From Thermostichus sp. DRC_bins_24 (GTDB lineage: Bacteria; Cyanobacteriota; Cyanobacteriia; Thermostichales; Thermostichaceae), in contig JAUQVK010000080.1 of the NCBI GenBank assembly GCA_039794845.1, positions 1-11,980 on the forward strand: DNA of 11,980 bases, in the 5' to 3' direction. The notes beneath the pieces were generated by a model that saw nothing but the letters and a program-made list of their open reading frames with translations, was not told where the DNA came from and made no database searches. The position numbers and the translations under genes are program-made. Shown piece after piece: positions 1 to 11,980 of the stretch (positions are counted from its first letter, which is position 1; each line of letters opens with the position of its first letter).

Positions 1-113
1 CAATCGGGGCGCTTGTAAACCGCCCTGGAGGTTCCTGGTTGTCTTGCGAGATAACTGGAGGGCTGCTGAAAGCCCGCGCTGTACTGCTTAGCGGTCGGAG
101 TCGGGTAGTTTAC
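1..113 (+). mobile_element. Right end of an IS200/IS605-family (tnpB-carrying) element, including the tnpB C-terminal tail and probable omega-RNA scaffold
   Basis: The frame from base 3 reads [37 protein letters not shown], resembling cyanobacterial TnpB C-terminal tails. An imperfect subterminal hairpin lies at 73-105 (CCCG..ACTGC-TTA-GCGGT..CGGG), followed by GTAGTTTAC ending in a TTAC tetranucleotide at 110-113. The rest of the element is outside the window. Confidence 0.7.
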
Positions 114-344
114 ATGGGAGCAGCAACTGGCTCACTCTCTCCCAACCACTCCGATAAAGAAACCGCCCGAGCTTGCAGCCCAAAGACTTCGCAAAAGGAC
201 TCCACCAACACCGGAGCAACCGCTTCCATCGTCACTTGCGGGCAAAATTGCGCCAGGGATCCCACAGGGCGGTCGGGGATCCCACAGGGTACAATCGCCT
301 CAAAAGCCGTCAAGTCTGGGCAAACATTCAAGGCAAAGCCGTGA
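3..344 (+). CDS. tnpB: Partial tnpB-like ORF (5' end outside window); no stop inside the element, reads on antisense into lipB
   Basis: Open frame from base 3 to the TGA at 342-344. Only the first ~37 codons look IS-derived; the rest is lipB antisense. Confidence 0.5.
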
Positions 345-865
345 TAGGTCACCCACCGCGAAACCTTGATGCCGATGGCGGCCAATTTGTGGCCCTCCAC
401 CCAAACCCCCGTCAAGCCAGGGATCCGCTCGCCCTTCAGGCCGAAATAAGCCAGGCATTCAATTAACACCTGTTCCAACTGGCGCAAGTACCCATGCAGA
501 TCCGGTTGGTGGCGCTTGAGGTTCAGGAGCGGATAGCCCACCCATTGCCCGGGGCCATGATAAGTAACTTCTCCTCCCCGCTCCACCCGCAAGACTTCTA
601 TCACTTGCTCGGAGGCCGCTTCTTGTTCGCATGAGCGGTGCGGAGCACCGGGGGATCCAATCGGTTGAGCAAGGCCGCTAAGAAACTTGGGGTCGGCTCC
701 GGCCCCCAGGGTATAGACCGCCGGATGGGTGAGCAGCAATAACCCATCGGGCAGTTGGGGATCCCGGATCATCTGAGCCAACCGGGCCTGTTGCCAAGCC
801 CAAGCGGTGCGGTAAGGAATCTCGCCGGGTTGATGCAGCAGCAGATAAGGACGGGTTTGCACCAC
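110..865 (-). CDS. lipB: Lipoyl(octanoyl) transferase LipB
   Basis: Motifs [38 protein letters not shown] and IVPCG. The likely start is GTG at 865 (or 862), preceded by GAGG and just after the TPR gene stop at 879-881. The ORF-track extension to 1135 overlaps the TPR gene. Confidence 0.95.
618..648. repeat. Short double-hairpin repeat inside lipB, homologous to the MITE core
   Basis: GCTTCTTGTTCGCATGAGCGGTGCGGAGCAC resembles the reverse complement of 3152-3187 (GCTTCCTTTTCTCGCGCTCTGCGAGGTGCGGAGCAC), with an exact 12-mer GGTGCGGAGCAC. Confidence 0.6.
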
Positions 866-878
866 AGGGATCCCTCGG

Positions 879-2558
879 CTAGGGGCCTGTAAAGACAATA
901 TCGAAGGCGATGCTGATGCGGGGCTCAGTCCCAACAAATGGAATGGTGCGATGCCAGAGGTGAGAGGGGAACAACACCAGCAAACCCGGCTGCGGCTGAA
1001 TTTTCTGCACCAAAGGATGGCTTGGCTCTTGGACAAACGGAAAGCGCTCGGGGTAAGTGCCGAACTCCAGCCACCCACTGGGATCCGCAGCGTCAACCCC
1101 CAAAGAGGCGGGCACTTGCACGTAGTACACCCCACTCAGGCTGGCGGAAGGATGCACATGGGGAATTTGGTGCCCCTGGGACTGCATCACCACCGCCCAC
1201 AGATCCCGCACCTGAAACGGCCCTTGAATGCGCTCTCGCCAGGGATGATCGGGAGGCAACTGAGGCAGGATCTGTTCAAGATAAAAGGGCACAGTTGTAG
1301 CAATACGGGATCCCAGGTGGTACAGCGGATGATCTGGGTCGGCGGGGTTGAGAAGGGACTCCGTCCCGCAATCGGCCAACAAGTTGCCGCTGTGGTAACC
1401 CGACCGGGTGGCATTGCGGGTGCGCTCCCAGATCAGGCTGGGGTGGGCCAAGATCATCTCTGCCAAGCGTGGATTGAGACGGGCGGTTTCTTCCGGCTGG
1501 GGACTGGGAAAGGTTTGCACAAAGGTTCGGGGATCCGCCAAATGCAGAGCTTCCGTCCAATGCTGCTGTTCCGCCTGAGCGATGGTTTGCAACGCCAATG
1601 CCAGCGGATGGGCCGGATGAAGTTCCAGAGCCCGTTGACAAGCGGTTGTGGCTGCTTGGGGATCCCCTTTCATCAGCAACAAATTGGCCAAATTCAGCTG
1701 CCCTTCCAAAAAGTAGGGATCCGTAAGCACCGCCCGTTGACAACAGTGCAACCCCTGCTCCAGCTGGCCCAGCTGGCCAAAGGCATCCCCCAAATTGCTC
1801 AGGGCTTCGGCATATCCCGAACGGGCCAAAATCGCCTGTTGGTAACACTGCACCGCCTTTTCCAGTTGCCCTTGCTCTTCGTAGAGGGTGCCCAGGTTGT
1901 TGTGGGCTTCGGCAAGGTTGGGTTTGAGCTGGAGAGCCCGACGATAAGCCCCCTCAGCGGCCGCCTCATCTCCTTTGGCTTTCAGGGCATTGGCTAAGTT
2001 GTTGTAGGCTTCGGCATAGTCAGGTTGCAGTTGAATCGCCTGTTCATAGGCCTGGATCGCTTGCGGCAGGGATCCCATTTCTTTTAACAAAATGCCGAGA
2101 TCGTTGTGGGCTTGGGCCGATTGAGGCTGTAACCGCACCACTTCTTGGTACTCCTGAACCGCCTCTCGGTAAAGCTGAGCAGAACGCAACAACTGGGCGA
2201 AATTCACCCGGGCTTCCAGATGATCGGGATCCAACAGCAGCGCTTGCCGGTAGTGGGGAACCGCTTCCGCCAGGGATCCCTGACTGTGGAGCAAGAAAGC
2301 CAAGTTGTAGTGGGCATCGGCCTCTGCGGGCTGTAGGGTTACCACTTTTTGCAAGTAGGCCAGGGCCTCCTGAGGCTGCCCTTGCTGATGGGCGATCATC
2401 CCCAGGATTTGTAAGGATCCCGGGTGATTGGGCTCCACTGTGAGGATCTCTTGCGCCAACTGGGTTGCTTGCGGAATTTGCCCTTGCTGCCAACGGGCGA
2501 CACACTCGGCAAAGCGACGCTCCAGATCCAGGGGCACTTTTTGGGGAAATGGGGGCAT
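879..2558 (-). CDS. TPR-repeat protein with C-terminal putative 2OG-Fe(II) oxygenase-like domain (TIGR02466/2OG-FeII_Oxy_5-like)
   Basis: About 8-9 TPR repeats ([24 protein letters not shown]). C-terminal [32 protein letters not shown] and RISIAFD. ATG at 2558; the TTG at 2570 is an alternative start. Confidence 0.85.
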
Positions 2559-2628
2559 AAGACTGGGCAAGAACCACCAGCTCAGATCTTAATGCCCTCG
2601 ACCCCGAACTCACATCAGACCAGCATCC

Positions 2629-2961
2629 TTAACCCACGGGCAGGTTAACCCGCGCTTGCAACCGTTCCAGCAAAGCCCGCGGCTGTAACAAACCTTCGAT
2701 CCGGTCGATCGGCTGCCCATCCTTGAACAGAATCAGGGTCGGCAGGGCTTGGATCCCCCAGCGGGCGGCAATGTTCGGGTACTTTTCGGTATCCACCTTA
2801 ATAAACGAAACCGCATCCCCCACTTGAGGCTTCACTTGCTCCAACACATTGGCCATCAGCCGACAGGGGCCACACCAAGAGGCATAAAAATCCACCAAAA
2901 TCGGAGTTTGGGATCCCCGAACCATATCATCAAAACTCTTGAACTGTTGCTTGTGAGCCAT
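2629..2961 (-). CDS. Thioredoxin, probably y-type (TrxQ-like)
   Basis: WCGPC active site. The N-terminal KQQFKSFDDM and the KVDTEKYP and ALPTLILFK segments resemble y-type thioredoxins. Confidence 0.93.
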   Translation of the reverse strand: MAHKQQFKSFDDMVRGSQTPILVDFYASWCGPCRLMANVLEQVKPQVGDAVSFIKVDTEKYPNIAARWGIQALPTLILFKDGQPIDRIEGLLQPRALLERLQARVNLPVG

Positions 2962-3008
2962 AGAACCCTCCGAGGCCAGTCGAGTAAAAAGAGAAAAAGT
3001 TTGGGTGC

Positions 3009-3024
3009 AACCTATTTATAGGTT
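3009..3024. promoter_or_regulatory. Perfect 7-2-7 palindrome upstream of the thioredoxin gene; candidate transcription-factor site
   Basis: AACCTAT-TT-ATAGGTT, about 50 bp upstream of the thioredoxin ATG in an AT-rich stretch. Confidence 0.35.
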
Positions 3025-3063
3025 AACTATTTAACGAGGAGATTTAACAGTTGGGAATTCCGT

Positions 3064-3224
3064 TACAGCCCTTTACGCCCGGGGCACACCGGCGTGTCCG
3101 CCGGTCACGCGTAACAACTGTGGGAGTTAGGATCCGCTCTCTAGAAGGCTAGTGCTCCGCACCTCGCAGAGCGCGAGAAAAGGAAGCACAATCCCTGCTC
3201 TAGCAAACCCGCCCAAGGGCTGTA
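3064..3224. mobile_element. MITE-like element, copy 1 (157 bp plus flanking TA dinucleotides)
   Basis: TA-CAGCCCTT ... AAGGGCTG-TA terminal inverted repeat. Collinear with the reverse complement of 11321-11456 in three blocks (20/24, 16/17 and 16/18 identical). Confidence 0.8.
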
Positions 3225-3364
3225 CTGCCGGTTTCAGTTTCCCGGTAGGATGTCTAGGGTTTGCAGAGGTGTAGTTGTAGTCTAGGTCGCCCCCTTCCGG
3301 AGTGAGGCAGACTTTACCGGGGTTTAACGATTCGGCTTAACGATTCTGAAGGAGTGGGATCCCA

Positions 3365-4630
3365 ATGGCAAAAGGCAGTAGCAGCATGGTGAACCGAGGG
3401 GTATTGGGGTTGGTGCTGGCCGGGGCTGGGCTGAGTCTTTGGGGGGCAGGGCGTTGGGCCTGGGATCCCACCCAAGCTTGGGCAGGGCTGACTCAACTGA
3501 TTGCGGGGCTGCTGTTGATCCTGGGTACCTTGCTCTACTGGCTGAAAACCCGGCCTGCCGATCAACTGTGGGTGGAGCCGCTGCAGTGGACCCTAGCCCG
3601 AGAAACCCCGCAGCAGTGGCGCATTCGAGCGGAATTTGTCGCCCGCAACCTCAACCCCCTTCTGGAGGTGACCCTTGCTCAAGTCAATCCGCGGCTGCAT
3701 CTGCTCAGTGCCGGCTCTTTGGAAGGGATCCACAGCCTGATGCGCTTGCGCTCTCGCCATGAGGATCTACCCCCCCGCCACGACAACTATTGGCAAGCCT
3801 ATATCCTCAGCCCCCAAGGCCAGACCGGTCTGGAACTGGAGATCGAGCTGACAGGGGAAGGGCTTTCCGATTTGCGCTCCGCCTGGATCGAGCTGGACTA
3901 CATCCAGTACGGGCGGCAACAACGCACCCTCAAAACCAGCCATTTGATCCTGCCGCTCCAGGAAGTGGATCCCCTGCCGGAGCTGAACTGGCAAAAACAA
4001 GAGCACCTCAGCTGGGCGCCTATTCCCACTCATTTGCTCACCCCCAGCGATGAGTGGCCGGCGGTGATCGAGCGCTACATTCGCCCCCATGCCCAACCGG
4101 GAGACATTGTCGCCATTTCCGAAACAGCTGCAGCAATTGTACAAGGCCATTTCCGCCATCCTCTCCAGGTAGAACCCGGTTTTTTAGCCCGCACCCTATG
4201 CTACTTTTTCCCCTCCAAAACCAGCCTTTCCAGCCGCTATGGGTTGCAAACCCTGATCGATTGTTCTGGCCCTTGGCGGGTGTTGTGGGCTTTTGGGATC
4301 GGATCTTTGGCCAAGCTGTTGCGGATCCCGGGGGTGTTTTATGCCTTGGCGGGAGACCAAGCCGCTCTCATTGACGATGTCACCGGAACATTGCCTCCGT
4401 ACGATCAATTTATTGTCTTGGGGCCTAAGGATCCCGCTCACTTGGTACAGCAGATTAAAACCCAGACGGGCTATGAAATCGCTATTGTCGATGCCAACGA
4501 CCTGGGAGAAGTGAAGATCTTGGCTGCTACCTCCGGAGTCAAGGGATCCCTGGTGGAACAGGCGCTCAAGAAAAATCCGGCAGGAAACTCTGCTGAACAA
4601 ACGCCCGTTGTGCTCATTCGCGCTCAGTGA
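3365..4630 (+). CDS. Membrane-anchored CofE / F420-0:gamma-glutamyl ligase-like protein
   Basis: Two N-terminal hydrophobic helices. C-terminal THLL..VAISET, IDDVTGTLPPYD, IAIVDANDLG and NPAGN..EQTP match the conserved cyanobacterial F420-ligase-like family. GAAGGAG lies upstream of the ATG. Confidence 0.8.
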   Translation: MAKGSSSMVNRGVLGLVLAGAGLSLWGAGRWAWDPTQAWAGLTQLIAGLLLILGTLLYWLKTRPADQLWVEPLQWTLARETPQQWRIRAEFVARNLNPLLEVTLAQVNPRLHLLSAGSLEGIHSLMRLRSRHEDLPPRHDNYWQAYILSPQGQTGLELEIELTGEGLSDLRSAWIELDYIQYGRQQRTLKTSHLILPLQEVDPLPELNWQKQEHLSWAPIPTHLLTPSDEWPAVIERYIRPHAQPGDIVAISETAAAIVQGHFRHPLQVEPGFLARTLCYFFPSKTSLSSRYGLQTLIDCSGPWRVLWAFGIGSLAKLLRIPGVFYALAGDQAALIDDVTGTLPPYDQFIVLGPKDPAHLVQQIKTQTGYEIAIVDANDLGEVKILAATSGVKGSLVEQALKKNPAGNSAEQTPVVLIRAQ

Positions 4631-6419
4631 AGGTTGTGGCTTTGAGCTCGTGCGCTTCTAAGGCTTGCATCGCCTGATGGGTGGACAAGAATAGGTGATC
4701 GGTTCCAATTTTCTCCACAAAATGAATCGCCTTAAGCCGATCCATCACCGGCCCTTTCACCTCCGCCATGTGAAACTGTACCCCCGCTTGCCAGAGCTTC
4801 TCCATTAGCCGCAGCAAAGATTCCAAGGCACTGCCATCGATAAAATTGACCGCGCTACAAATCAACAGCACGTGCTGCACCTCGGGCCGTTCCGCCACCT
4901 GTCTGAGCAAATACTCCTCCAAATAAGCGGCATTGGCAAAAAACAAACTTTCATCCACCCGTACCGCCAAAATCCGGGGATCCGTGAGCACCTCATGGCG
5001 GAGTACATTGCGATAGTGCTCTGTGCCCGGCACCCGTCCGACGATGGCAATATGGGGGCGGCTACTGCGCCAGAGAAACAACGCAATGGAGGCAATCACC
5101 CCCAGCCCGATCCCCGGCTCGATCCCGACCAGCAAAACGCTGGCAAAGGTTACCACCCACACCCCGGCATCCCCCCGGTCGTAGTGCCAACTGTGCAGCA
5201 ACGGGCGAAAATCCACCAACCCCAGCACTGCCACCAAAATGGTTGCCGCTAGGGTGGTTTGGGGCAAAAAGAAAAACAGCGGCATCAGCAGCAACACCGT
5301 CAGGGCGATCAACCCCGCCGTAATCAAAGAAGCCAAGCCAGAATTGGCCCCCGCTTGAAAATTCACCACCGAGCGGCTGATCCCCCCTGTCACCGGGTAG
5401 CCCCCCGTCAACGCAGCAGCCAGATTGGCCGCCCCCAACCCCAGCAAATCCTGGTCGGGATCCACCTTCTGGCGTTTTTTGCTGGCCAAGGACTGCCCCA
5501 CGGCGTAGCTCTCGGTAAAACCCACCAAGCTAATGGCCAAAGCCGTGGGCAACAGGGATCCCCATTGCTCCGGGCTCAGCCAAGGAAAGGTCAGGGGTGG
5601 CAACCCCGCCGGAATGGCTCCCACCACCGCCACCCCGGAGCCCTGCGACAGACCCAACCCCCACACCAGCAAGGTGGTTAGGATCACCACCCCCAAGGGG
5701 GCCCCTTTACTGAGGGGCAACACCCAAGCCTGGGGGATCCCCCACCGACGCAACTGAGCCGGCCATTTTTGTTGGGCATAAAGGAGCAGGGCAATCGCCA
5801 ACAGCCCCAAGCCAAACGTGACCCCATTCACCCCCTCCAGACTGAGCCACAACTGTTGCAGCAGGCGGATCAAGGACTCCGTGTTGGGGATCCGTACCCC
5901 CAACAGGTGCTTGAGCTGGCTAAAAGCAATGATCAAGGCCGCCGCACTGGTAAAGGCAGAAATCACCGAGTGGCTGAGGAAATTTACCAAAAACCCCAGC
6001 CGCAGCACCCCCATCCCCGCCTGGATCAACCCCACCCAGAGGGCAATCCCTAAGGCCAACTGCCCGTACTCCGGGCTACCCGGTTCTGCCAAGGGTTCCA
6101 ACCCCGCCGCCACCAGCAAGGACACGATCGCCACCGGCCCCACCGATAACACCCGGCTGGATCCCAGCAGGGCATAAACGGCCAGGGGCAAGATGCTGGC
6201 ATACAACCCCGTCTGGGGAGGCAACCCGGCCAACAGGGCATAGGCCATGCTCTGGGGCACCAACATAATGGCTGCGATCACCCCGGCAATCACATCCCCC
6301 GGCAAATCCGCAGGAGAGTAGTGCCACAACCACTCGGTAAAAGGCAAGTAACGGTGCAGGATCCGGGAATCGGTGGATGGAGAAGGGGGATCCTGCACCC
6401 TAGGGATCCCTTGGCTCAT
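4614..6419 (-). CDS. SulP/SLC26 family anion (sulfate) transporter with STAS domain
   Basis: GDVIAG, PQSMAYALLAGLPP..GLY, GGYPVTGGISRS and STAS motifs (LFFANA, VNFIDGSAL). The ATG at 6419 overlaps the rhodanese TGA as ATGA, indicating translational coupling. Confidence 0.95.
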   Translation of the reverse strand: MSQGIPRVQDPPSPSTDSRILHRYLPFTEWLWHYSPADLPGDVIAGVIAAIMLVPQSMAYALLAGLPPQTGLYASILPLAVYALLGSSRVLSVGPVAIVSLLVAAGLEPLAEPGSPEYGQLALGIALWVGLIQAGMGVLRLGFLVNFLSHSVISAFTSAAALIIAFSQLKHLLGVRIPNTESLIRLLQQLWLSLEGVNGVTFGLGLLAIALLLYAQQKWPAQLRRWGIPQAWVLPLSKGAPLGVVILTTLLVWGLGLSQGSGVAVVGAIPAGLPPLTFPWLSPEQWGSLLPTALAISLVGFTESYAVGQSLASKKRQKVDPDQDLLGLGAANLAAALTGGYPVTGGISRSVVNFQAGANSGLASLITAGLIALTVLLLMPLFFFLPQTTLAATILVAVLGLVDFRPLLHSWHYDRGDAGVWVVTFASVLLVGIEPGIGLGVIASIALFLWRSSRPHIAIVGRVPGTEHYRNVLRHEVLTDPRILAVRVDESLFFANAAYLEEYLLRQVAERPEVQHVLLICSAVNFIDGSALESLLRLMEKLWQAGVQFHMAEVKGPVMDRLKAIHFVEKIGTDHLFLSTHQAMQALEAHELKATTFTERE

Positions 6420-6994
6420 AGAGACTGGCCTCGATTCCAGGGCATCCGCGCCAACAACAGGGCCATGCCACAGGTGTTGGTGACGCCGGCGAACACCAGA
6501 CCCGACCCGACAAAGCCACTCAACAACAGCCACCAAGGGCTGACGAAGGCCCCCAAGAGTGTGCCCAGCACCACCAGGGATCCGGCAGCAATCTGCACCT
6601 GACGCATCAGAGAAATGGGGGCATTTGGGGTACGGGTCACCGGCAATCGCGCCGCTTTCCAAGCCTCAATTCCCCCTTTGAGGTTGAGCACCTCCGGCCA
6701 GCCCCTTTCCAAGAGCTGACAACTGGCCCGGATCGAGCGGCTGCCCATGCGGCACTGCATCACCACCGGCTGTTCGGGCGTAGAGGCGGGTACCTGCGCC
6801 GGGTCAAATTGGGATAAGGGCATATTGATCGCCCCCGGGATCCGTTCCTCAGCATATTCCGAGGGTTCTCGTACATCGATCAGCTGAACTCGCCCCTGAT
6901 CCAGCCATTGCTTCAACGTCAGGACATCAATTTCCTTAAGACGGGGATCCCGATCCTGTTGGGATTGGGGTTGAGGGTTTTGTGCGAGGGTCAT
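6416..6994 (-). CDS. Rhodanese-domain sulfurtransferase with C-terminal DUF2892 membrane domain (YgaP-like)
   Basis: LIDVREPSEY, active-site CRMGSRS, LKGGIEAW, then RQVQIAAG..GLVFAGVTNTCGMALLLARMPWN. AGGAG ribosome-binding site upstream. Confidence 0.92.
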   Translation of the reverse strand: MTLAQNPQPQSQQDRDPRLKEIDVLTLKQWLDQGRVQLIDVREPSEYAEERIPGAINMPLSQFDPAQVPASTPEQPVVMQCRMGSRSIRASCQLLERGWPEVLNLKGGIEAWKAARLPVTRTPNAPISLMRQVQIAAGSLVVLGTLLGAFVSPWWLLLSGFVGSGLVFAGVTNTCGMALLLARMPWNRGQSL

Positions 6995-7057
6995 GATGTT
7001 CTCCTAGATTTTGTGAAAGGTTAAGGTTGGGTTGAGAGTGAAGGGGAAAAACTTGGC

Positions 7058-7522
7058 TTACGCCTCCTCTTGCAGTAAATCGCTGGGTTCGCCGGGATAA
7101 AACTGCTCATCCAGAATCTGCTCTAACGCATAGGGACACTCCCTTGGGAAGACTTTCTTGGGGAGGTTAGTCTCGTTACTCACAAGTTCAGATGCTTTTA
7201 AGTAGCTTCGCTCTAGGGTCTCTTGCAAATGAGCTTTTAGACTTGGGTTATCTAATAGCAAGTCGGCAACTTCAATCCGCTGAATCCGTAAAGTTGAAAA
7301 CCAACTTCGAGATCGGCATTCCGGCTGATATTCCCACTTCAGCAGATGTCCAATCAAAATAGAAAATCGATTCCGCAGTTCCTGCCGCTGCTGCTTACCC
7401 AAAGATTCGATCTCCTCAATCAAATTGGGCAAATCTAACTGATTCCAGGCCTGATCCCGCAGAAGCTGGGCCTGCTCCTGTGTCCAAGCATAGAAATCGG
7501 TGTCGTAGGCCGTTTTTGCCAT
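7058..7522 (-). CDS. DUF29 family protein
   Basis: YDTDFYAW..QAQLLR, LDLPNLIEEIESLG, HLLKWEYQP, RSW, NPSLK and FP.ECPY are DUF29 hallmarks. Confidence 0.92.
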   Translation of the reverse strand: MAKTAYDTDFYAWTQEQAQLLRDQAWNQLDLPNLIEEIESLGKQQRQELRNRFSILIGHLLKWEYQPECRSRSWFSTLRIQRIEVADLLLDNPSLKAHLQETLERSYLKASELVSNETNLPKKVFPRECPYALEQILDEQFYPGEPSDLLQEEA

Positions 7523-7526
7523 ATCC

Positions 7527-7895
7527 TTAGTCCATAAAGTTGCTAAGAAAGATTAACTGATCTTGCACATCCTCGGGAGAGTAAAGCTCTTGAATCAGGA
7601 GGATTCCCTTAAGCAACTCTCCAACTGAGTACTGTTGCTGCTTAACCAAAATCAAGCCTGCATGATGCTTCCCTGCCTGAAGCCATTGGCTATGAAGTCT
7701 ACAGAAGTCGGCAATGTTTGAGGAGTACAGCACCCGGCCTTCTTGAGTTGCCCAAGCAAGCTGTTCATTACCGGAACATGCCAGTTGATCCACATCCTTA
7801 GCAGTGACCACATCCACCTGTTGCTGCCATAAAGCAGTGACTAGAGATTGGCTCATTGAGTCTTCATCAATGTAAGAAGGATCATGATTTGGCAT
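7527..7895 (-). CDS. DUF5615 PIN-like (VapC45-like) toxin, possibly damaged at the N-terminus
   Basis: YIDED, RVLYSSN..DF and HAGLI motifs, directly downstream of DUF433. The coupled ATG at 7885 is out of frame by one base (see findings). Confidence 0.75.
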   Translation of the reverse strand: MPNHDPSYIDEDSMSQSLVTALWQQQVDVVTAKDVDQLACSGNEQLAWATQEGRVLYSSNIADFCRLHSQWLQAGKHHAGLILVKQQQYSVGELLKGILLIQELYSPEDVQDQLIFLSNFMD

Positions 7896-8196
7896 TCAGT
7901 TTAGCCCTATATTCAGCCTCCAAGCGATCGGCTTCAGCTGCTTGAAAAGCAATATCCGCATCAATCATTTCCTGGTTGGCAAAATAGAAGGCTAGTGCTG
8001 CGTACACTTGGGTTTTGGTGAGATGAGGAATCTCGGCCAAAATATCCTCTGGACTACAGCCATGATTGTAGTCACTAGCAATCCGCCGAACCGTAATACC
8101 TGTGCCTGCAATGATTGGAACGCCCTGATGGATACGAGGATGAGTGGTGATCATCGTGCCAATATCTACGGCATTGGGCATGGTTGGAGTTGGCAT
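7882..8196 (-). CDS. DUF433 (VapB45-like) antitoxin
   Basis: P.I..GVPIIAGTGITV..I, PEDIL...PHLT..QVYAALAFY. Confidence 0.9.
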   Translation of the reverse strand: MPTPTMPNAVDIGTMITTHPRIHQGVPIIAGTGITVRRIASDYNHGCSPEDILAEIPHLTKTQVYAALAFYFANQEMIDADIAFQAAEADRLEAEYRAKLNAKS

Positions 8197-8226
8197 TGAT
8201 CTTCCTAGAACACTGCTTCTCTTAAG

Positions 8227-8943
8227 CTAAACAGTCGTGGGAACTTTACCACATTGCTCGTTGGCAGGCACGGCCTCTTGGATTTTTTTCGGATTGGGCA
8301 GGTTCAAATTGTTCATCAAGGCGATGAAGCTCTCCCGTGAACGCAGGGATCCGGTCGCGGGGTCAACAAAGCGGGGGTTCCACCGTTTTTCTTCCCCAAT
8401 GGTAGAAACCGTGCGTCCTTTGTAATCATGGCCCGGATAAACCAGGGTCTCCTCCGGCAGGCTGAACAAATGCCCCGTGACATGGTCATACATCAGGCCC
8501 GCATCCCCACTTTGGAAATCGGTGCGCCCGCAGCCCCGGATCAACAGGGCATCCCCCGTCAAAACCCGATCCCCGTTTACCCGGTAGGTCATGTGGCTGT
8601 CGGTGTGCCCTAGGGTCGCAATGGCTTCAATGGAAATGGATCCCACCTGAATGGTTTCCCCGTGGGCAATAAAGCGGTCGGCACACTGGGCTTTGGCCCC
8701 TACGGGCACGATTCCCTGGCAGCCCGTCCGTTCCCGCAGTTTGCCAGTTCCGGTGACGTGGTCGGCATGCACATGGGTTTCCAGACAGTACTTCAGGGTT
8801 AGTCCCAACTCCTGGATCAAGGTGAAATCTCGCTCCACCTGCTCCAATACGGGATCCACTAGGGCCGCCTCACGGGTTTGCGGATCCGCGATTAAATAGG
8901 TGTAGGTACCTGTCTCCTGGTCAAACAGTTGCCGAAAGAGCAT
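8227..8943 (-). CDS. ETHE1-like persulfide dioxygenase (metallo-beta-lactamase fold)
   Basis: FRQLFD..T.TYTYL, ETHVHADH, GHT, TGDALLIRGCGRTDFQ, YPGHDY.G and L.LPNPK. GGAGG ribosome-binding site upstream. Confidence 0.93.
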   Translation of the reverse strand: MLFRQLFDQETGTYTYLIADPQTREAALVDPVLEQVERDFTLIQELGLTLKYCLETHVHADHVTGTGKLRERTGCQGIVPVGAKAQCADRFIAHGETIQVGSISIEAIATLGHTDSHMTYRVNGDRVLTGDALLIRGCGRTDFQSGDAGLMYDHVTGHLFSLPEETLVYPGHDYKGRTVSTIGEEKRWNPRFVDPATGSLRSRESFIALMNNLNLPNPKKIQEAVPANEQCGKVPTTV

Positions 8944-9017
8944 AGCATCCTCCTGATATGGTGCTCGAGCCTTGGCTTACGCCCTTCAAGGTCACAACCT
9001 TGTTTCGCTCATGCTTC

Positions 9018-9052
9018 TAACTATATAACCATTCGGTGTTATAATCAAGTTA
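9018..9052. promoter_or_regulatory. Overlapping divergent promoters and putative ArsR operator
   Basis: Extended -10 TGnTATAAT at 9037-9045 (+ strand, toward arsR). TATAGT on the - strand at 9020-9025 (toward the dioxygenase). Inverted repeat TATAAC-N8-GTTATA at 9024-9043, with outer TAACT/AGTTA arms. Confidence 0.6.
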
Positions 9053-9061
9053 GTTAAGTGG

Positions 9062-9415
9062 ATGGATCCTGCCATGCCCCCAGCCCTCACCCCAGAAGTC
9101 CTGAGCAGCGTAGCCGACTACTTTAAGGTGCTTTCGGAGCCCAGTCGGTTGCAGATTTTGTGTGAGCTGCGTTCTGGCCCCAAGAATGTAACGGAAATCC
9201 TAGAAGCGACGGGCATGGGACAGGCCAATGTTTCCAAGCATTTGAAGATCTTGGCCCAAGCGGGCATCGTCAGTCGCCAACCCAAAGGCGTGAGCGTCTA
9301 CTACCAGATTGTGGATCCAGCCTGTTTTGAGCTGTGTGAGGTGGTGTGCCATCAGTTGATCGAGCGGCTCCAGCAGCAAGCTCGCCAGTTGCAACCCCTG
9401 CAGGGATCCCGTTAA
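9062..9415 (+). CDS. ArsR/SmtB-family repressor, BigR/SqrR-like persulfide sensor
   Basis: FKVLSEPSRLQILCEL and QANVSKHLKIL helix-turn-helix. Cys in helix 2 plus C-terminal Cys residues (ACFELCEVVC). Divergent from the persulfide dioxygenase operon. Confidence 0.88.
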   Translation: MDPAMPPALTPEVLSSVADYFKVLSEPSRLQILCELRSGPKNVTEILEATGMGQANVSKHLKILAQAGIVSRQPKGVSVYYQIVDPACFELCEVVCHQLIERLQQQARQLQPLQGSR

Positions 9416-9416
9416 T

Positions 9417-9839
9417 TTAATCCGGTAGGTCTTTGGGCAGGGCGTTTTGAGGGTGCTCCCGCCGCAACACCAAAGGAATGCTGAGGATACCGAACAGAGC
9501 CACCACCCCGGCCATCAGCCCGATTAACCAACGACTGGGGCGAAAATTGCCCTCCTCAATTTGCCGCAGCACCTGCTGGTACCGCCAAGCGGAAAGGCCA
9601 ATCATCACCACCCCAAACACCACCAGCAGCAGCCCCAGGTTTTCCGCATTCAACAGACTGCGAATCGGCTCCATCTGCTGGGGATCCCCCGTCCTGTTGC
9701 CCTGCAGTTGTCGCAAAAACAGGCTAAAGCGAGCAATGGCAAAACCAAACCCAATCAGGGCGATTGAGGTCCGCAGCCAAGCCAAAAAAGTGCGTTCGTT
9801 CGCTTGATGTTCGCGTTGTCGATCCGGGGGAAGGCTCAT
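9417..9839 (-). CDS. DUF202 / YidH family inner membrane protein
   Basis: REHQANERTFLAWLRTSIALIGFG signature and three hydrophobic segments. Confidence 0.92.
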   Translation of the reverse strand: MSLPPDRQREHQANERTFLAWLRTSIALIGFGFAIARFSLFLRQLQGNRTGDPQQMEPIRSLLNAENLGLLLVVFGVVMIGLSAWRYQQVLRQIEEGNFRPSRWLIGLMAGVVALFGILSIPLVLRREHPQNALPKDLPD

Positions 9840-9899
9840 GGGCTTATTTTAAGGCTCGGGATCCCTGAACTCAGAGGGTAGATCTCAGCCTAAAACCCC

Positions 9900-11045
9900 T
9901 CACCCCTTGCGCAAACATCGGGGATCCGGCAGACTGGCTTTTTCTGGCTGGCGGGGAAAGTAAAAGGCCGTGCGTTTACACACTTCCACCAACATCAGCA
10001 TTACCGGCACCTCGATCAGCACCCCCACCACCGTTGCCAAAGCTGCCCCCGAGTTCAACCCAAACAACACCACCGCCGTCGCGATCGCCACCTCGAAGTG
10101 ATTGCTCGCCCCAATCAAGGCAGCCGGAGCGGCATCTTCGTAGGATAAGCCCAGTTTTTGCCCAGCCACATAGGTAATGCCAAAGATTAGATTGGTTTGA
10201 ATAAAAAGGGGCACCGCAATCAACAAAATATGGAACGGGTTCTCGATGATCAACTCCCCTTTGAAGGCAAACAGCAACACCAACGTCACCAACAAAGCCG
10301 TGATCGCCACCGGGGTGAGATAGCCCAAAAACGCTTTCTCAAACCATTCCTTCCCTTTCGTTTGCAAAATCCAATATCGGGATCCGATCCCAGCTGCCAA
10401 CGGTAAGCCGACATAAACAGCCACCGACAGCAAAATGGTTTGCCAGGGCACGGTGAGATCGCTCATGGCCAAGAGCCAACGCCCCAAGGGCGCGTAAAGA
10501 AACAGCATCGCCAAAGAGTTCACGGCCACCATCACCAAGGTGTGTCCTTGATTGCCATAGCTGAGATAGCCCCACATCAGCACCATCGCTGTACAGGGAG
10601 CAATCCCCAACAAAATTGCCCCCGCAATGTAGGAATTAACCAGACTCATTTCCACGCCGCGAATCACCTCAGTGCCCGCCAACCAGGGCTGAAACAGCCA
10701 ACCGAGAAAAAACCGGGCGATCACCACCATGGTGAATGGCTTAATTAACCAGTTCACCACCAAGGTCAACATCACCGGCTTGGGAGATTTCAGAGCATGA
10801 GTCGCCTGGCCAAAATCGATCTTGACCATGATCGGATACATCATGAAAAACAGACAGATGGCAATTGGGATCGAAACCTGATGGACACTAAGGGCATCCA
10901 GCGTCACCGCCACCTGAGGGAACCCTCGTCCCAAGAGGATCCCGGCCACAATACACAACCCCACCCAAACGGTTAGGTAGCGCTCAAAGAAACTCAGGGA
11001 TCCGCCAATCGCTAGGGGTTGCTCGTCGGTGAAGGGTTCAGTCAT
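9900..11045 (-). CDS. acr3: Acr3-family arsenite efflux transporter
   Basis: [44 protein letters not shown] and [10 protein letters not shown]. The likely start is the ATG at 11045, because the ATG at 11114 lies inside the operator. Confidence 0.95.
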
Positions 11046-11102
11046 GGTCGCTTTCTCAAAATAGGGGACAAAAGGATCCGGTGGGATCCCGCAGGATTTT
11101 CT

Positions 11103-11125
11103 AGAATACATCAAGAAAACTTGTT
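11103..11125 (-). promoter_or_regulatory. Arsenic-responsive ArsR operator next to the putative -10 box of acr3
   Basis: Minus strand AACAAGTTTTCTTGATG (11125-11109) matches 15/17 of the Synechocystis arsBHC operator repeat as I recall it (ATCAAGTTTTTTTGATG). It is immediately followed by TATTCT. Confidence 0.7.
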
Positions 11126-11201
11126 GTGAAGTTTGCCCTGAGCCAACCCCTCAGAACCCCTTAGCCTACAAACCCATGAAGCGGAATGTGGTGGGTGCTG
11201 C

Positions 11202-11980
11202 TTGATTTTCCAAAGGTTTAGCCTACCTGCAACAACGAGTGGCAATCCAGAGCCCCTGGAAATTCGTATGGCCATTCAAGAAGATGAAGATACGGATTTG
11301 GGTACCTTTCTGATTGAAGATACAGCCCTTACGCGGGTCTTCCAGGACAGGGCTTGTGCTTCCTGCTCCTGCTTTCGCGGGGCCCGGAGGGCTAGCCCTC
11401 CAGAGGTTAGAACTCAACTTCCATAGTTGTTACACATGACTAGCGAAAGGGTTGTAAGGCAGGCAAGCGTCCGCCTGTCAAAATCAGGCTACAGGTAGAA
11501 GGCGGAACTGTAGAGGAGACCGAAGGCCAAACGGATGCTGACGGCTACTTCCGAACAACTGCCACGATTGCAGAAGACAGCAACTACATCTTGGTTACTG
11601 CTACTGCGGAGTACTAACCGGAAAGAGATGGGGAAAGGCTCATCCGAGCCGCCTTGGATTTGAAGATGAAGAGACTGGTGGAGGTAGTGGCTCGGGGGGA
11701 GGCAATGGTGGGGGGTCAGTACCCTTACCCTGTCCGCATTGTGGAGAAGCCGATGGCGTCGGGGATCCGCATGTGTACACCCTCGACCGGTTGCGCTACG
11801 ACTTTCATGGGGCCGGAGAATATGTCTTGAGCCAGTCTGTGGTGCCGGAGCTGAAGTTTCAGCTGCAAGGACGTTTCCGCAGCAGCACCCTAGCCAGCAT
11901 GACCCGTGCCATCGCCACTCAGATGGGATCCCATCGGGTGAGAATGGATGTCACCCCCCCGCCCGACCCAGCCCATCCCC
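11202..11980 (+). pseudogene. Decayed extracellular protein gene: Ig-like segment, Gly/Ser linker and VWD (von Willebrand type D) domain; continues past the window
   Basis: With the MITE removed, the frame reads ..FLIEDKAGKRPPVKIRLQVEGGTVEETEGQTDADGYFRTTATI..VTATAEY, then TAA at 11615-11617 and a frameshift near 11620-11660. It then reads GGGSGSGGGNGGG..GDPHVYTLDRLRYDFHGAGEYVL, the VWD signature. Confidence 0.75.
11321..11456. mobile_element. MITE-like element, copy 2 (132 bp plus TA target duplication)
   Basis: TA-CAGCCCTTACGCGGGTC ... GACTAGCGAAAGGGTTG-TA imperfect terminal inverted repeats. Deleting 11323-11456 fuses the upstream and downstream frames as GAT AAG GCA. Confidence 0.85.

Follow-up and report, generated by a model that had tools for sequence, protein, structure and literature searches.

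Three double hairpins in a Thermostichus contig and the probably genus-limited family of ultra-small, structure-defined mobile repeats to which they belong

An 11,980-nucleotide stretch of Thermostichus sp. DRC_bins_24 DNA (assembly GCA_039794845.1, contig JAUQVK010000080.1, positions 1 to 11,980 of the forward strand), hereafter the window, contains three copies of a very short double hairpin, one within the octanoyltransferase gene lipB and two within copies of a miniature inverted-repeat transposable element (MITE). The three copies very probably belong to a genus-limited family of ultra-small, non-autonomous mobile repeats that are defined by their structure, and units of this family get copied into new sites. 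Each unit of 24 or 27-29 nucleotides (nt) comprises a leader of 2-3 nt, mostly xAT or xTT, followed by hairpin 1 and hairpin 2. The stem sequence of hairpin 1 is free but its pairing is required, and hairpin 2 retains the pattern G-NN-C, GGA loop, G-N'N'-C. The genome that carries the window, G000, is a draft of 3.50 Mb in 115 contigs with a GC content of 56.9% and a completeness of 99.9%. The comparison set comprised 12 genomes of the genus (G000-G011) and 19 genomes of other genera.

The unit in lipB is 24 nt long and is located at 625-648 on the plus strand, antisense to the gene. It consists of a GTT leader, CGC(628-630)-ATGA-GCG(635-637) and GTGC(638-641)-GGA-GCAC(645-648), and its limits as given by the indel relative to the congener G010 are 627-650. 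The second unit (29 nt, 3152-3180, minus strand) lies at the center of MITE copy 2 and is assembled from a TTT leader, CTCGC-GCTCT-GCGAG and GTGC-GGA-GCAC, the hairpins being the reverse complement of 3152-3177. The third unit (28 nt, 11365-11392, plus strand) occupies the center of MITE copy 3, with a GCT leader followed by CCTGC-TTTC-GCGGG, which includes one T.G pair, and GCCC-GGA-GGGC; its hairpins span 11368-11392. A covariance model, R1, was built on an alignment (A3) of 35 distinct 27-nt units that derive from other contigs, with none from the window. When the window was scanned with R1 and no filters were applied, three significant matches were returned, at 3152-3178 (minus strand; E 1.9e-7), 11365-11392 (plus strand; E 2.1e-6) and 625-648 (plus strand; E 4.3e-5), and a fourth match with an E value of 0.46 was the opposite strand of the second copy. 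These are exactly the three copies, and the sequences, that an earlier note on this DNA had set out from inspection of the letters. The second and third copies are not independent, as they occupy corresponding places in two members of a single MITE of ~140 nt. Separately, a GGAC-GGA-GTCC hairpin of the second-hairpin type is present at 1356-1366 on the minus strand, within a gene (879-2570) for a 563-aa protein that combines TPR repeats with a 2OG-Fe(II) oxygenase domain at the C-terminus. It passes a loose scan, lacks a typical first hairpin and gives no covariance-model match, and is probably either a chance occurrence or a decayed unit.

The genome-wide extent of the family, which the earlier note had proposed to establish by scanning, was assessed with a structural scan that called for a first hairpin and, immediately after it, a G-NN-C hairpin with a chosen loop. 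With GGA as the loop, 156 units were identified in G000, compared to 5-17 for eight control loops; a TCC loop gave 54, which are units with TCC as their first loop, read from the opposite strand. Sixty-three of the 156 units are inside MITE matches and 93 are outside. The latter group into 70 loci, among them 55 single units, nine doubles, four triples and two quadruples. The second-hairpin stems in the genome are GTGC (73), GCCC (31), GGAC (21), GGCC (15) and GTCC (11). The R1 model produced at least 148 matches in G000 at E<=1 among the best 150 of ~2000 candidates. Moreover, the 11-mer GTGCGGAGCAC occurs 80 times in G000 compared to a mean of 2.4 and a maximum of 14 for 200 shuffled 11-mers, and 46 of the 80 occurrences are outside MITE matches.

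The units can be sorted into three types. Type A units of 27 nt read xAT CTTGC-TAC-GCAAG GTGC-GGA-GCAC, and type B units, also of 27 nt, read GAT GACCC-TCC-GGGTC followed by GTGC- or GTCC-GGA-... and often form arrays of 1-4 inside another repeat of ~150 nt. That repeat (TAATGAGGGGTAAGCCTGCGGCACGCTGCGCTACGGGGAGC ... GATAAGTCCCGCGCTCTACC) was noted on contigs C24, C28, C45, C53, C67, C103 and C115 of G000 with 1-4 tandem B-type units, the number of which differs between copies of the host repeat. Type C units of 24 nt have the form (T/A)T CGC-N4-GCG G-NN-C-GGA-G-N'N'-C; about 45 are present, with GGAC, GGCC, GTGC, GAAC and GAGC as second-hairpin stems. The lipB unit belongs to type C, and its nearest relative is C14:30569, with which it shares 23 of 25 nt (E 0.014 genome-wide).

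Alignment A3 consisted of 15 non-MITE units that were gathered by an exact hairpin 2 search and 20 MITE modules that were taken by position. For the structure ...(((((...)))))((((...)))) 95.9% of cells were paired compared to 80.4% in shuffled alignments (0/500), both sides changed in six of the nine pairs, and the covariation score was 0.477 compared to 0.167 (0/500). When partners were slid against one another, pairing was 23-59%. Helix 1, which had not been subject to selection in assembling the alignment, was 92.6% paired with both-sided change in four of its five pairs. Compensatory change around a fixed GGA loop, which the earlier note had read from three copies, thus extends to the family: the inner two pairs of hairpin 2 vary in step.

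The abundance of the family differs widely within the genus. The GTGCGGAGCAC motif is most frequent in G008 (121 copies), G000 (80), G005 (72) and G006 (72), followed by G010 (19), G004 (16), G001 (12), G002 (11), G011 (6), G007 (5), G003 (2) and G009 (1). Outside the genus the 19 genomes possess 0-2 copies each, which is also the range for the reversed control. At E<=1e-4 the R1 model, which represents the 27-nt type, detected at least 96 units in G000, at least 68 in G008, at least 20 in G010, at least 16 in G004, at least two in G003 and at least one in G013, with none in the remaining 25 genomes among the matches listed. The 27-nt type seems to be confined to a subgroup of the genus, and the 24-nt type is spread more widely in it, as evidenced by arrays with 24-nt spacing in G005 and G006.

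Mobility was examined by an empty-site test in which eight unit-bearing loci were compared with the corresponding loci of relatives, and six of the eight gave clean results. In panC, a 27-nt unit inside the Pantoate_ligase match, which specifies residues DLATQGAEH, was found in G000 alone of 16 genomes and was absent from 11/11 congeners and 4/4 outgroups. The gene for a metallo-beta-lactamase-fold protein on contig C25 has a 27-nt unit that was absent in 5/5 relatives, and a 27-nt unit on C95 was absent in 3/3 relatives, whose site reads as an intact GGGATCCC. On C56, the 24-nt unit of a 697-aa open frame was absent in 5/5 loci of four matching genomes, with no match in G006, and in a transglutaminase-like gene on C14 the 24-nt unit was missing from G008 and had decayed in G004. 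The sixth locus is lipB, where a 24-nt unit is missing from G010, as described below. As the unit is private to G000 at panC, C25, C56 and C95, gain is the parsimonious reading at these four loci. Units reside at the MITE center, in the loop of an IS605-like end hairpin, within one another, between genes and, in frame, within protein genes, and local multiplication has generated head-to-tail arrays. Overall, the family, its covariation and empty sites in six genes support the proposal of the earlier note that the hairpins form a very small, mobile, structure-selected unit akin to small dispersed repeats (SDRs).

Nineteen open frames of >=200 aa hold units, 12 in sense and seven in antisense orientation. 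A Pfam scan of 18 of the 19 frames matched 11 at E<=1e-5. The domains seen were FabF-like, transglutaminase, metallo-beta-lactamase, class II aminoacyl-tRNA synthetase, a weak Aldedh, peptidase C26, MatE, CDP-alcohol transferase, AMP-binding, PanC-Cmk and a sub-threshold OrfB_IS605. The units are mostly situated at the termini or ahead of the matched domain, such that some terminal units may fall outside the true coding sequence; those in panC and lipB are inside the domains. The usual reading frame of hairpin 2 specifies GAEH in sense or GAPH in antisense orientation. The suggestion that the hairpins add peptide loops to enzymes is therefore borne out by in-frame units of 8-9 residues, for example in lipB and panC. 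It is very unlikely that the double hairpin is instead a host-selected RNA or DNA signal, such as a terminator, a protein-binding site or a regulatory motif. Although the strong structural conservation and the location of some copies near gene ends or just ahead of the Pfam-matched part would suit a signal of this type, the units appear in both orientations relative to genes, are found inside enzyme domains, MITEs, dead insertion sequence (IS) copies and arrays, and show presence and absence at the same site between close relatives, and no Rfam match was obtained in the window.

The lipB gene (110-850, minus strand) was identified by a match to PF21948 (LplA-B_cat; E 1e-42). Its open frame reaches 1135, but relatives match from ~850, which is ~95 codons later, and translation probably begins in fact near 850-865. 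The minus-strand translation of the unit is GAPHRSCE, residues 68-75 of the protein. The earlier note had considered the stretch between YTLG and ERGG in LipB to be longer than typical, and indeed the linker from KFL to EVLRVERGG contains 10-26 extra residues in 12/12 genomes of the genus and is missing from 7/8 genomes outside it, the eighth of which has an unrelated longer insert. The 24 nt are present in G000 and in G008, where three substitutions have accumulated, one of which breaks hairpin 1, whereas G004 retains 15 nt and has lost the hairpin 1 portion. In the alignment of orthologs, which the earlier note had put forward as a check, G010 lacks exactly the 24 nt and reads GGATCCCCT^CAAGAAGTG (here and below ^ marks the junction). 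In an AlphaFold2 model of LipB based on 17 sequences (mean pLDDT 80.5), residues 61-81 are predicted with pLDDT <50 and without secondary structure between two confident strands. The simplest view of the unit in this enzyme is that of a tolerated passenger.

That the lipB match is a chance resemblance of an ordinary ancestral linker is hardly credible. By an estimate from base composition, chance alone would give about one 12-mer per genome in common with a 200-copy repeat, and the linker is hypervariable, such that the A-x-H-P or DTQP of other congeners could be distant homologues of GAPH. However, the E value of 4.3e-5 was obtained with a model trained elsewhere, the match to a C-type unit extends over 23 of 25 nt, all 24 nt fit the C-type consensus xTT, CGC-N4-GCG, G-NN-C-GGA-G-NN-C, and the indel relative to G010 is exactly 24 nt with boundaries that agree.

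The host of the other two window copies was analyzed with nhmmer by using a profile of 71 seeds, which gave 202 matches in G000, 127 of which are near full length. The ~140-nt element has TA on both flanks and terminal inverted repeats of ~14 nt (TACAGCCCTTgCGC / GCGaAAGGGCTGTA). Copy 2 (3064-3224, minus strand) is 161 nt including the flanking TAs, with the ends TA^CAGCCCTTGGGC ... AAAGGGCTG^TA, and copy 3 (11321-11456, plus strand) is 136 nt including flanking TA. A contig from a second hot-spring metagenome run does not have copy 3 and joins 11321 to 11459 with GAA between; the MITE therefore exhibits insertion polymorphism. The central 27-29 nt are cleanly missing in 40 of the 127 near-full-length copies. 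The module-less junction is identical in at least three subfamilies, with GCTTCCT^CAGCC in 18 copies, GCTTCTTT^AGCC in 12, and others. The modules themselves combine CTCGC/GCGAG or CCCGC/GCGGG as hairpin 1 with GTGC/GCAC or GCCC/GGGC as hairpin 2 in all four combinations. Hence, the view that the unit rides inside a MITE, which accounts for 63 of the 156 units, gains from the presence or absence of the module among copies.

Further length variation was evident in the 3' part of MITE copy 2, where a second 24-nt hairpin module from another sequence family (3075-3098, minus strand) is inserted between ...GGCG and AAAGGGCTGTA; it is missing from copies with a short 6-nt tail. The MITE tail from TGAC to AAGGGCTGTA measures 6, 30, 31, 43, 47/48 or 54 nt, with 24 and 48 as the commonest steps. 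One half of the 48-nt tail form has a CGC-GCCA-GCG first hairpin, as is seen in C-type units. A search for long elements bounded by MITE ends, which might correspond to a parent transposon, returned seven pairs that are 829-2382 nt apart.

The earlier note had also described a common layout in which GCTTC and a spacer precede the two hairpins in all three copies. The double hairpins of that layout were upheld, but GCTTC and the spacer proved to be flank and not a portion of the unit. In lipB, the GCTTC spacer persists as ACTTCTTG in a congener without the unit, and the stretch GCTTCTTG is flank and not element because it occurs in the empty allele. The lipB unit adjoins GGGGGATCC. In the MITE, the GCTTC spacer is MITE sequence that is present also in copies without the module. 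Among the 93 non-MITE units, GCTTC is located <=14 nt upstream of one only, which is the lipB unit.

The sites that receive units share a simple motif. The dinucleotide AT directly precedes hairpin 1 in 56 of the 93 non-MITE units and directly follows the unit in 51, and the two dinucleotides match in 48 of the 93 at that offset, compared to 1-6 at the other offsets tested. When arrays were collapsed and the unit was removed at 72 loci, the restored junction was N^AT in 31 (5% expected), N^ATC in nine and G^ATC in five (1% expected). Two of the restored octamers are palindromic, GGGATCCC and CCGATCGG, with GGG^ATCCC at C95 and CCG^ATCGG in panC. The first of these is the prevailing highly iterated palindrome (HIP) of the genome: G000 contains 4573 copies of GGGATCCC in 3.5 Mb compared to just 78 of GCGATCGC, and examples in the window are at 272-293, 751-767 and 5729-5747. 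In the accessible parts of two sources, GGGATCCC is reported as the HIP variant of hot-spring Synechococcus of the Thermostichales (PMC4390886, PMC13756078). At the empty-site junctions, the repeats were AT (panC, C56), ATC or ACYATC (C25), ATCCCA (C95) and TT(C/T)GC (C14).

Several observations count against the interpretation of the family as mobile and moved by a dedicated machinery. No mobilizing gene was found for the units. Two of the eight loci in the empty-site test, an AMP-binding gene on C97 and the C-terminus of an aminoacyl-tRNA synthetase on C42, have flanks too diverged to be scored. The 100% pairing of helix 2 in A3 is partly by construction, as the non-MITE units had been chosen by an exact hairpin 2, and kinship within the family inflates the covariation counts, which denote constraint and not a number of independent events. 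In lipB, the linker of the other eight congeners is of another sequence and shorter by 15 nt (AIHP, DTQP). Because the LipB tree is a polytomy within the genus, gain in lipB cannot be separated from loss in G010, and the latter is as possible as gain in the line of G000, G008 and G004. Metagenome contigs from three runs of one study, a data type in which rare variants are dropped, contained no 24-nt lipB variant. Lastly, the direct repeats at real empty-site junctions range from 2-6 nt, and this variability fits enzyme-free microhomology copying no less well than short target duplication.

Given that the units are mobile, their insertion 5' of AT is probably due to a hairpin-reading protein that acts on single-stranded DNA. 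In single-stranded DNA, a putative trans-acting protein of this type would recognize the C-GGA-G loop and the closing pairs, which do not vary, and would place the unit directly 5' of AT, which at times would be the AT of a GATC-centered HIP-type palindrome. Tandem arrays would follow because the end of the unit itself recreates xAT. The main rival explanation dispenses with an enzyme: replication would spread the units by switching template (copy choice) under the guidance of microhomologies of 2-6 nt, hairpins would stall the polymerase and set the copied segment, and arrays would arise by slippage. Template switching is unlikely as the means by which the units spread, even though it would accommodate junction repeats of variable length, the frequency of arrays of 2-4 units (15 of 70 loci), new insertions that are identical to existing copies, as with the panC unit and the unit on C72, and the resemblance of the lipB flank GCTTCTTG to the MITE flank GCTTCCTG. 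It leaves unexplained that the GGA loop of hairpin 2 is fixed, as are its outer G-C and inner C-G pairs, while the two pairs between these covary, and that the family is restricted to a single genus within which species differ 100-fold, and the GCTTC flank is common to just one of the 93 non-MITE units. In the closed genome G006, strand bias of the units along the chromosome was judged by eye only and displayed no pattern.

If a protein does insert the units, its identity can be weighed against known enzymes. The earlier note had suggested that a HUH tyrosine transposase perhaps moves the units. In the fuller form of this proposal, a Y1 (HUH) transposase or a REP-associated tyrosine transposase (RAYT) would move them as single-stranded hairpins, and the units would be miniature derivatives of IS200/IS605 ends or sequences like repetitive extragenic palindromic (REP) elements, inserted 3' of a short target. 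This proposal is improbable and ranks below template switching. Certain attributes would be explained by it: the two hairpins, the precedence of structure over sequence, the short xAT motif, and arrays through the xAT end. Moreover, Y1_Tnp genes are present in 12/12 genomes of the genus. Nevertheless, G000 has one Y1_Tnp (PF01797) match, which is split over two frames, adjoins a frame resembling TnpB and lies in a locus devoid of units; draft assemblies can miss IS copies, so the absence of an intact Y1 gene from G000 is not proven. The numbers of Y1 matches and of GTGCGGAGCAC motifs in the 12 congeners correlate poorly (rho 0.16, p 0.62; a rough comparison as kin are not independent), as exemplified by G001 with 23 Y1 matches and 12 motifs and G007 with 20 matches and five motifs. 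The best match in a model scan of five other congener Y1 loci had an E value of 0.015 (seven loci scanned overall), and no flanking pair was observed when the Y1 loci were checked for GGA-loop hairpins. Furthermore, the units lack GTAG or CGTC heads and are found in genes.

An IS origin was also suggested by a single IS605-like copy in G006 that has GCGC-GGA-GCGC at both ends. As a candidate for the ends proper of IS605, this hairpin was rejected. The right end harbors a full C-type unit that is a 24-nt insertion relative to an aligned G001 copy, and, to judge from matches that are split but adjoin in subject coordinates, further IS copies in G001, G010 and G005 seem to lack the 24 nt as well. 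The hairpin native to the right end in the IS605-like family has a different 9-bp stem (CCCGCACTC...GAGTGCGGG), and the G006 unit sits in its loop; therefore, the unit invades the IS and is not derived from it. In the G007 copy a unit is located elsewhere, and the G005 copy possesses nested units, one of which is within the GGA loop of an earlier unit. The tnpA-tnpB loci with units in or close to the loop of the right-end hairpin, at places that differ between copies, are L118 (G006; 1440-1480 and 3150-3200), L124 (G005; 3260-3400) and L127 (G007; 2140-2260). Thus, the HUH/RAYT driver is not sustained, as the sole Y1 gene of G000 is frameshifted, the counts do not correlate, and the one IS605 right end that was compared between genomes acts as target. 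Correspondingly, a RAYT or TnpA gene flanked by the same hairpins, which the earlier note had recommended as a check, was found neither in G000 nor at the congener Y1 loci examined. A tentative alternative for the hairpin-reading protein, less probable than its general form above, is an unrecognized system that is neither DDE nor Y1/HUH in type: it would read the C-GGA-G triloop hairpin and paste double hairpins of 24-27 nt 5' of AT, with a preference for the loops or centers of small palindromes that include HIP-type GATC octamers.

Other features of the window are mentioned briefly. A scan for Rfam families and tRNAs gave zero matches. Direct repeats with a period of 102 nt at 1787-2321 are the TPR repeats of the 563-aa protein noted above. 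An open frame of 421 aa at 3365-4630 (plus strand) gives nothing in Pfam at E<=0.001. On the minus strand, 7058-8196 accommodates three small neighboring genes with DUF29, DUF5615 and DUF433 domains; the pair of DUF5615 and DUF433 is often taken as a toxin-antitoxin-like module.

Among everything known to be mobile in genomes, elements of 24-27 nt mark the lower limit of size. The SDRs were reportedly described in 2008 and their mechanism is said to have been open since then. The present family of ~150 units is strongly covarying, includes datable lineage-specific insertions, and belongs to a lineage remote from the Nostocaceae with a different HIP palindrome; the link between micro-elements and GATC palindromes therefore becomes testable by comparison. 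The family also provides a concrete route to short surface loops in enzymes such as LipB and PanC. Annotators of these genomes should be aware that odd repeats and short 'insertions' in frame are often this unit. If an insertion system that is neither DDE nor Y1 in type does exist, SDR-type micro-elements would constitute a cyanobacterium-wide class that is tied to the unexplained HIP palindromes, and would furnish a steady supply of 8-9-residue loop insertions in enzymes.

A search of the literature, to the extent that the main texts were accessible and with supplements not covered, found no description of these units, and the unit motifs occurred there only as unrelated sequences. The closest known elements are the SDRs of the Nostocaceae, above all SDR5, with which the units share behavior but not architecture, lineage or stringency of the target rule, which is looser here. 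Families SDR1-8 of 21-27 nt were reportedly described by Elhai et al. in 2008 (Genome Res 18:1484) in Nostoc punctiforme and other Nostocaceae. In those parts of the sources that were available, SDR5 is given as 21 nt in length (PMC13756078) and as inserting exactly after the third nucleotide of the HIP1 palindrome (PMC4390886), and the available portion of a review states that no SDR-like repeat was found outside the Nostocaceae (PMC5861425). As SDRs are portrayed in these excerpts, the units resemble them in being ultra-small, dispersed, hairpin-forming, nested within further repeats and variably present at orthologous sites; among SDR features, lengths of 24 and 27-29 nt, many copies, retention of structure, nesting and empty sites were all found. 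The units differ from SDR5, a comparison made by description and not by sequence, in their two adjacent hairpins, their size of 24 or 27 nt and their Thermostichales host. An SDR5-like target is a minority among them, with G^ATC at 5/72 loci and two restored HIP-type octamers, and N^AT is commoner at 31/72.

REP elements and REPINs with RAYT (Y1 HUH) transposases are short GC-rich hairpin repeats (PMC3116915, PMC6006769) and carry GTAG or CGTC heads (PMC3733652) in the sections of these articles that could be accessed. To that extent the units are similar to REPs as short, GC-rich, high-copy hairpins of covarying structure that are often clustered. However, REPs are extragenic, replicate in the form of inverted doublets and are found at the flanks of a RAYT gene, whereas the units are found in genes, have xAT or xTT leaders, form head-to-tail arrays and have no RAYT that was found. 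The units are also dissimilar to mini-elements derived from IS200/IS605 (PATE-like), as their hairpins do not match the native IS end described above. Rickettsia palindromic elements (RPE) are selfish palindromic repeats of ~100-150 bp that are tolerated in frame and lengthen surface loops. The units share with RPEs the in-frame tolerance in conserved genes, but are smaller, at 24-27 bp with 8-9 added residues. Finally, the host MITE resembles MITEs of the IS630/Tc1-mariner type, in which we presumptively place it, in its flanking TA, inverted ends of ~14 nt, ~200 copies and insertion polymorphism, whereas the unit itself has no terminal inverted repeats, is five times smaller, exhibits junction repeats of 2-6 nt and is a passenger in the MITE.

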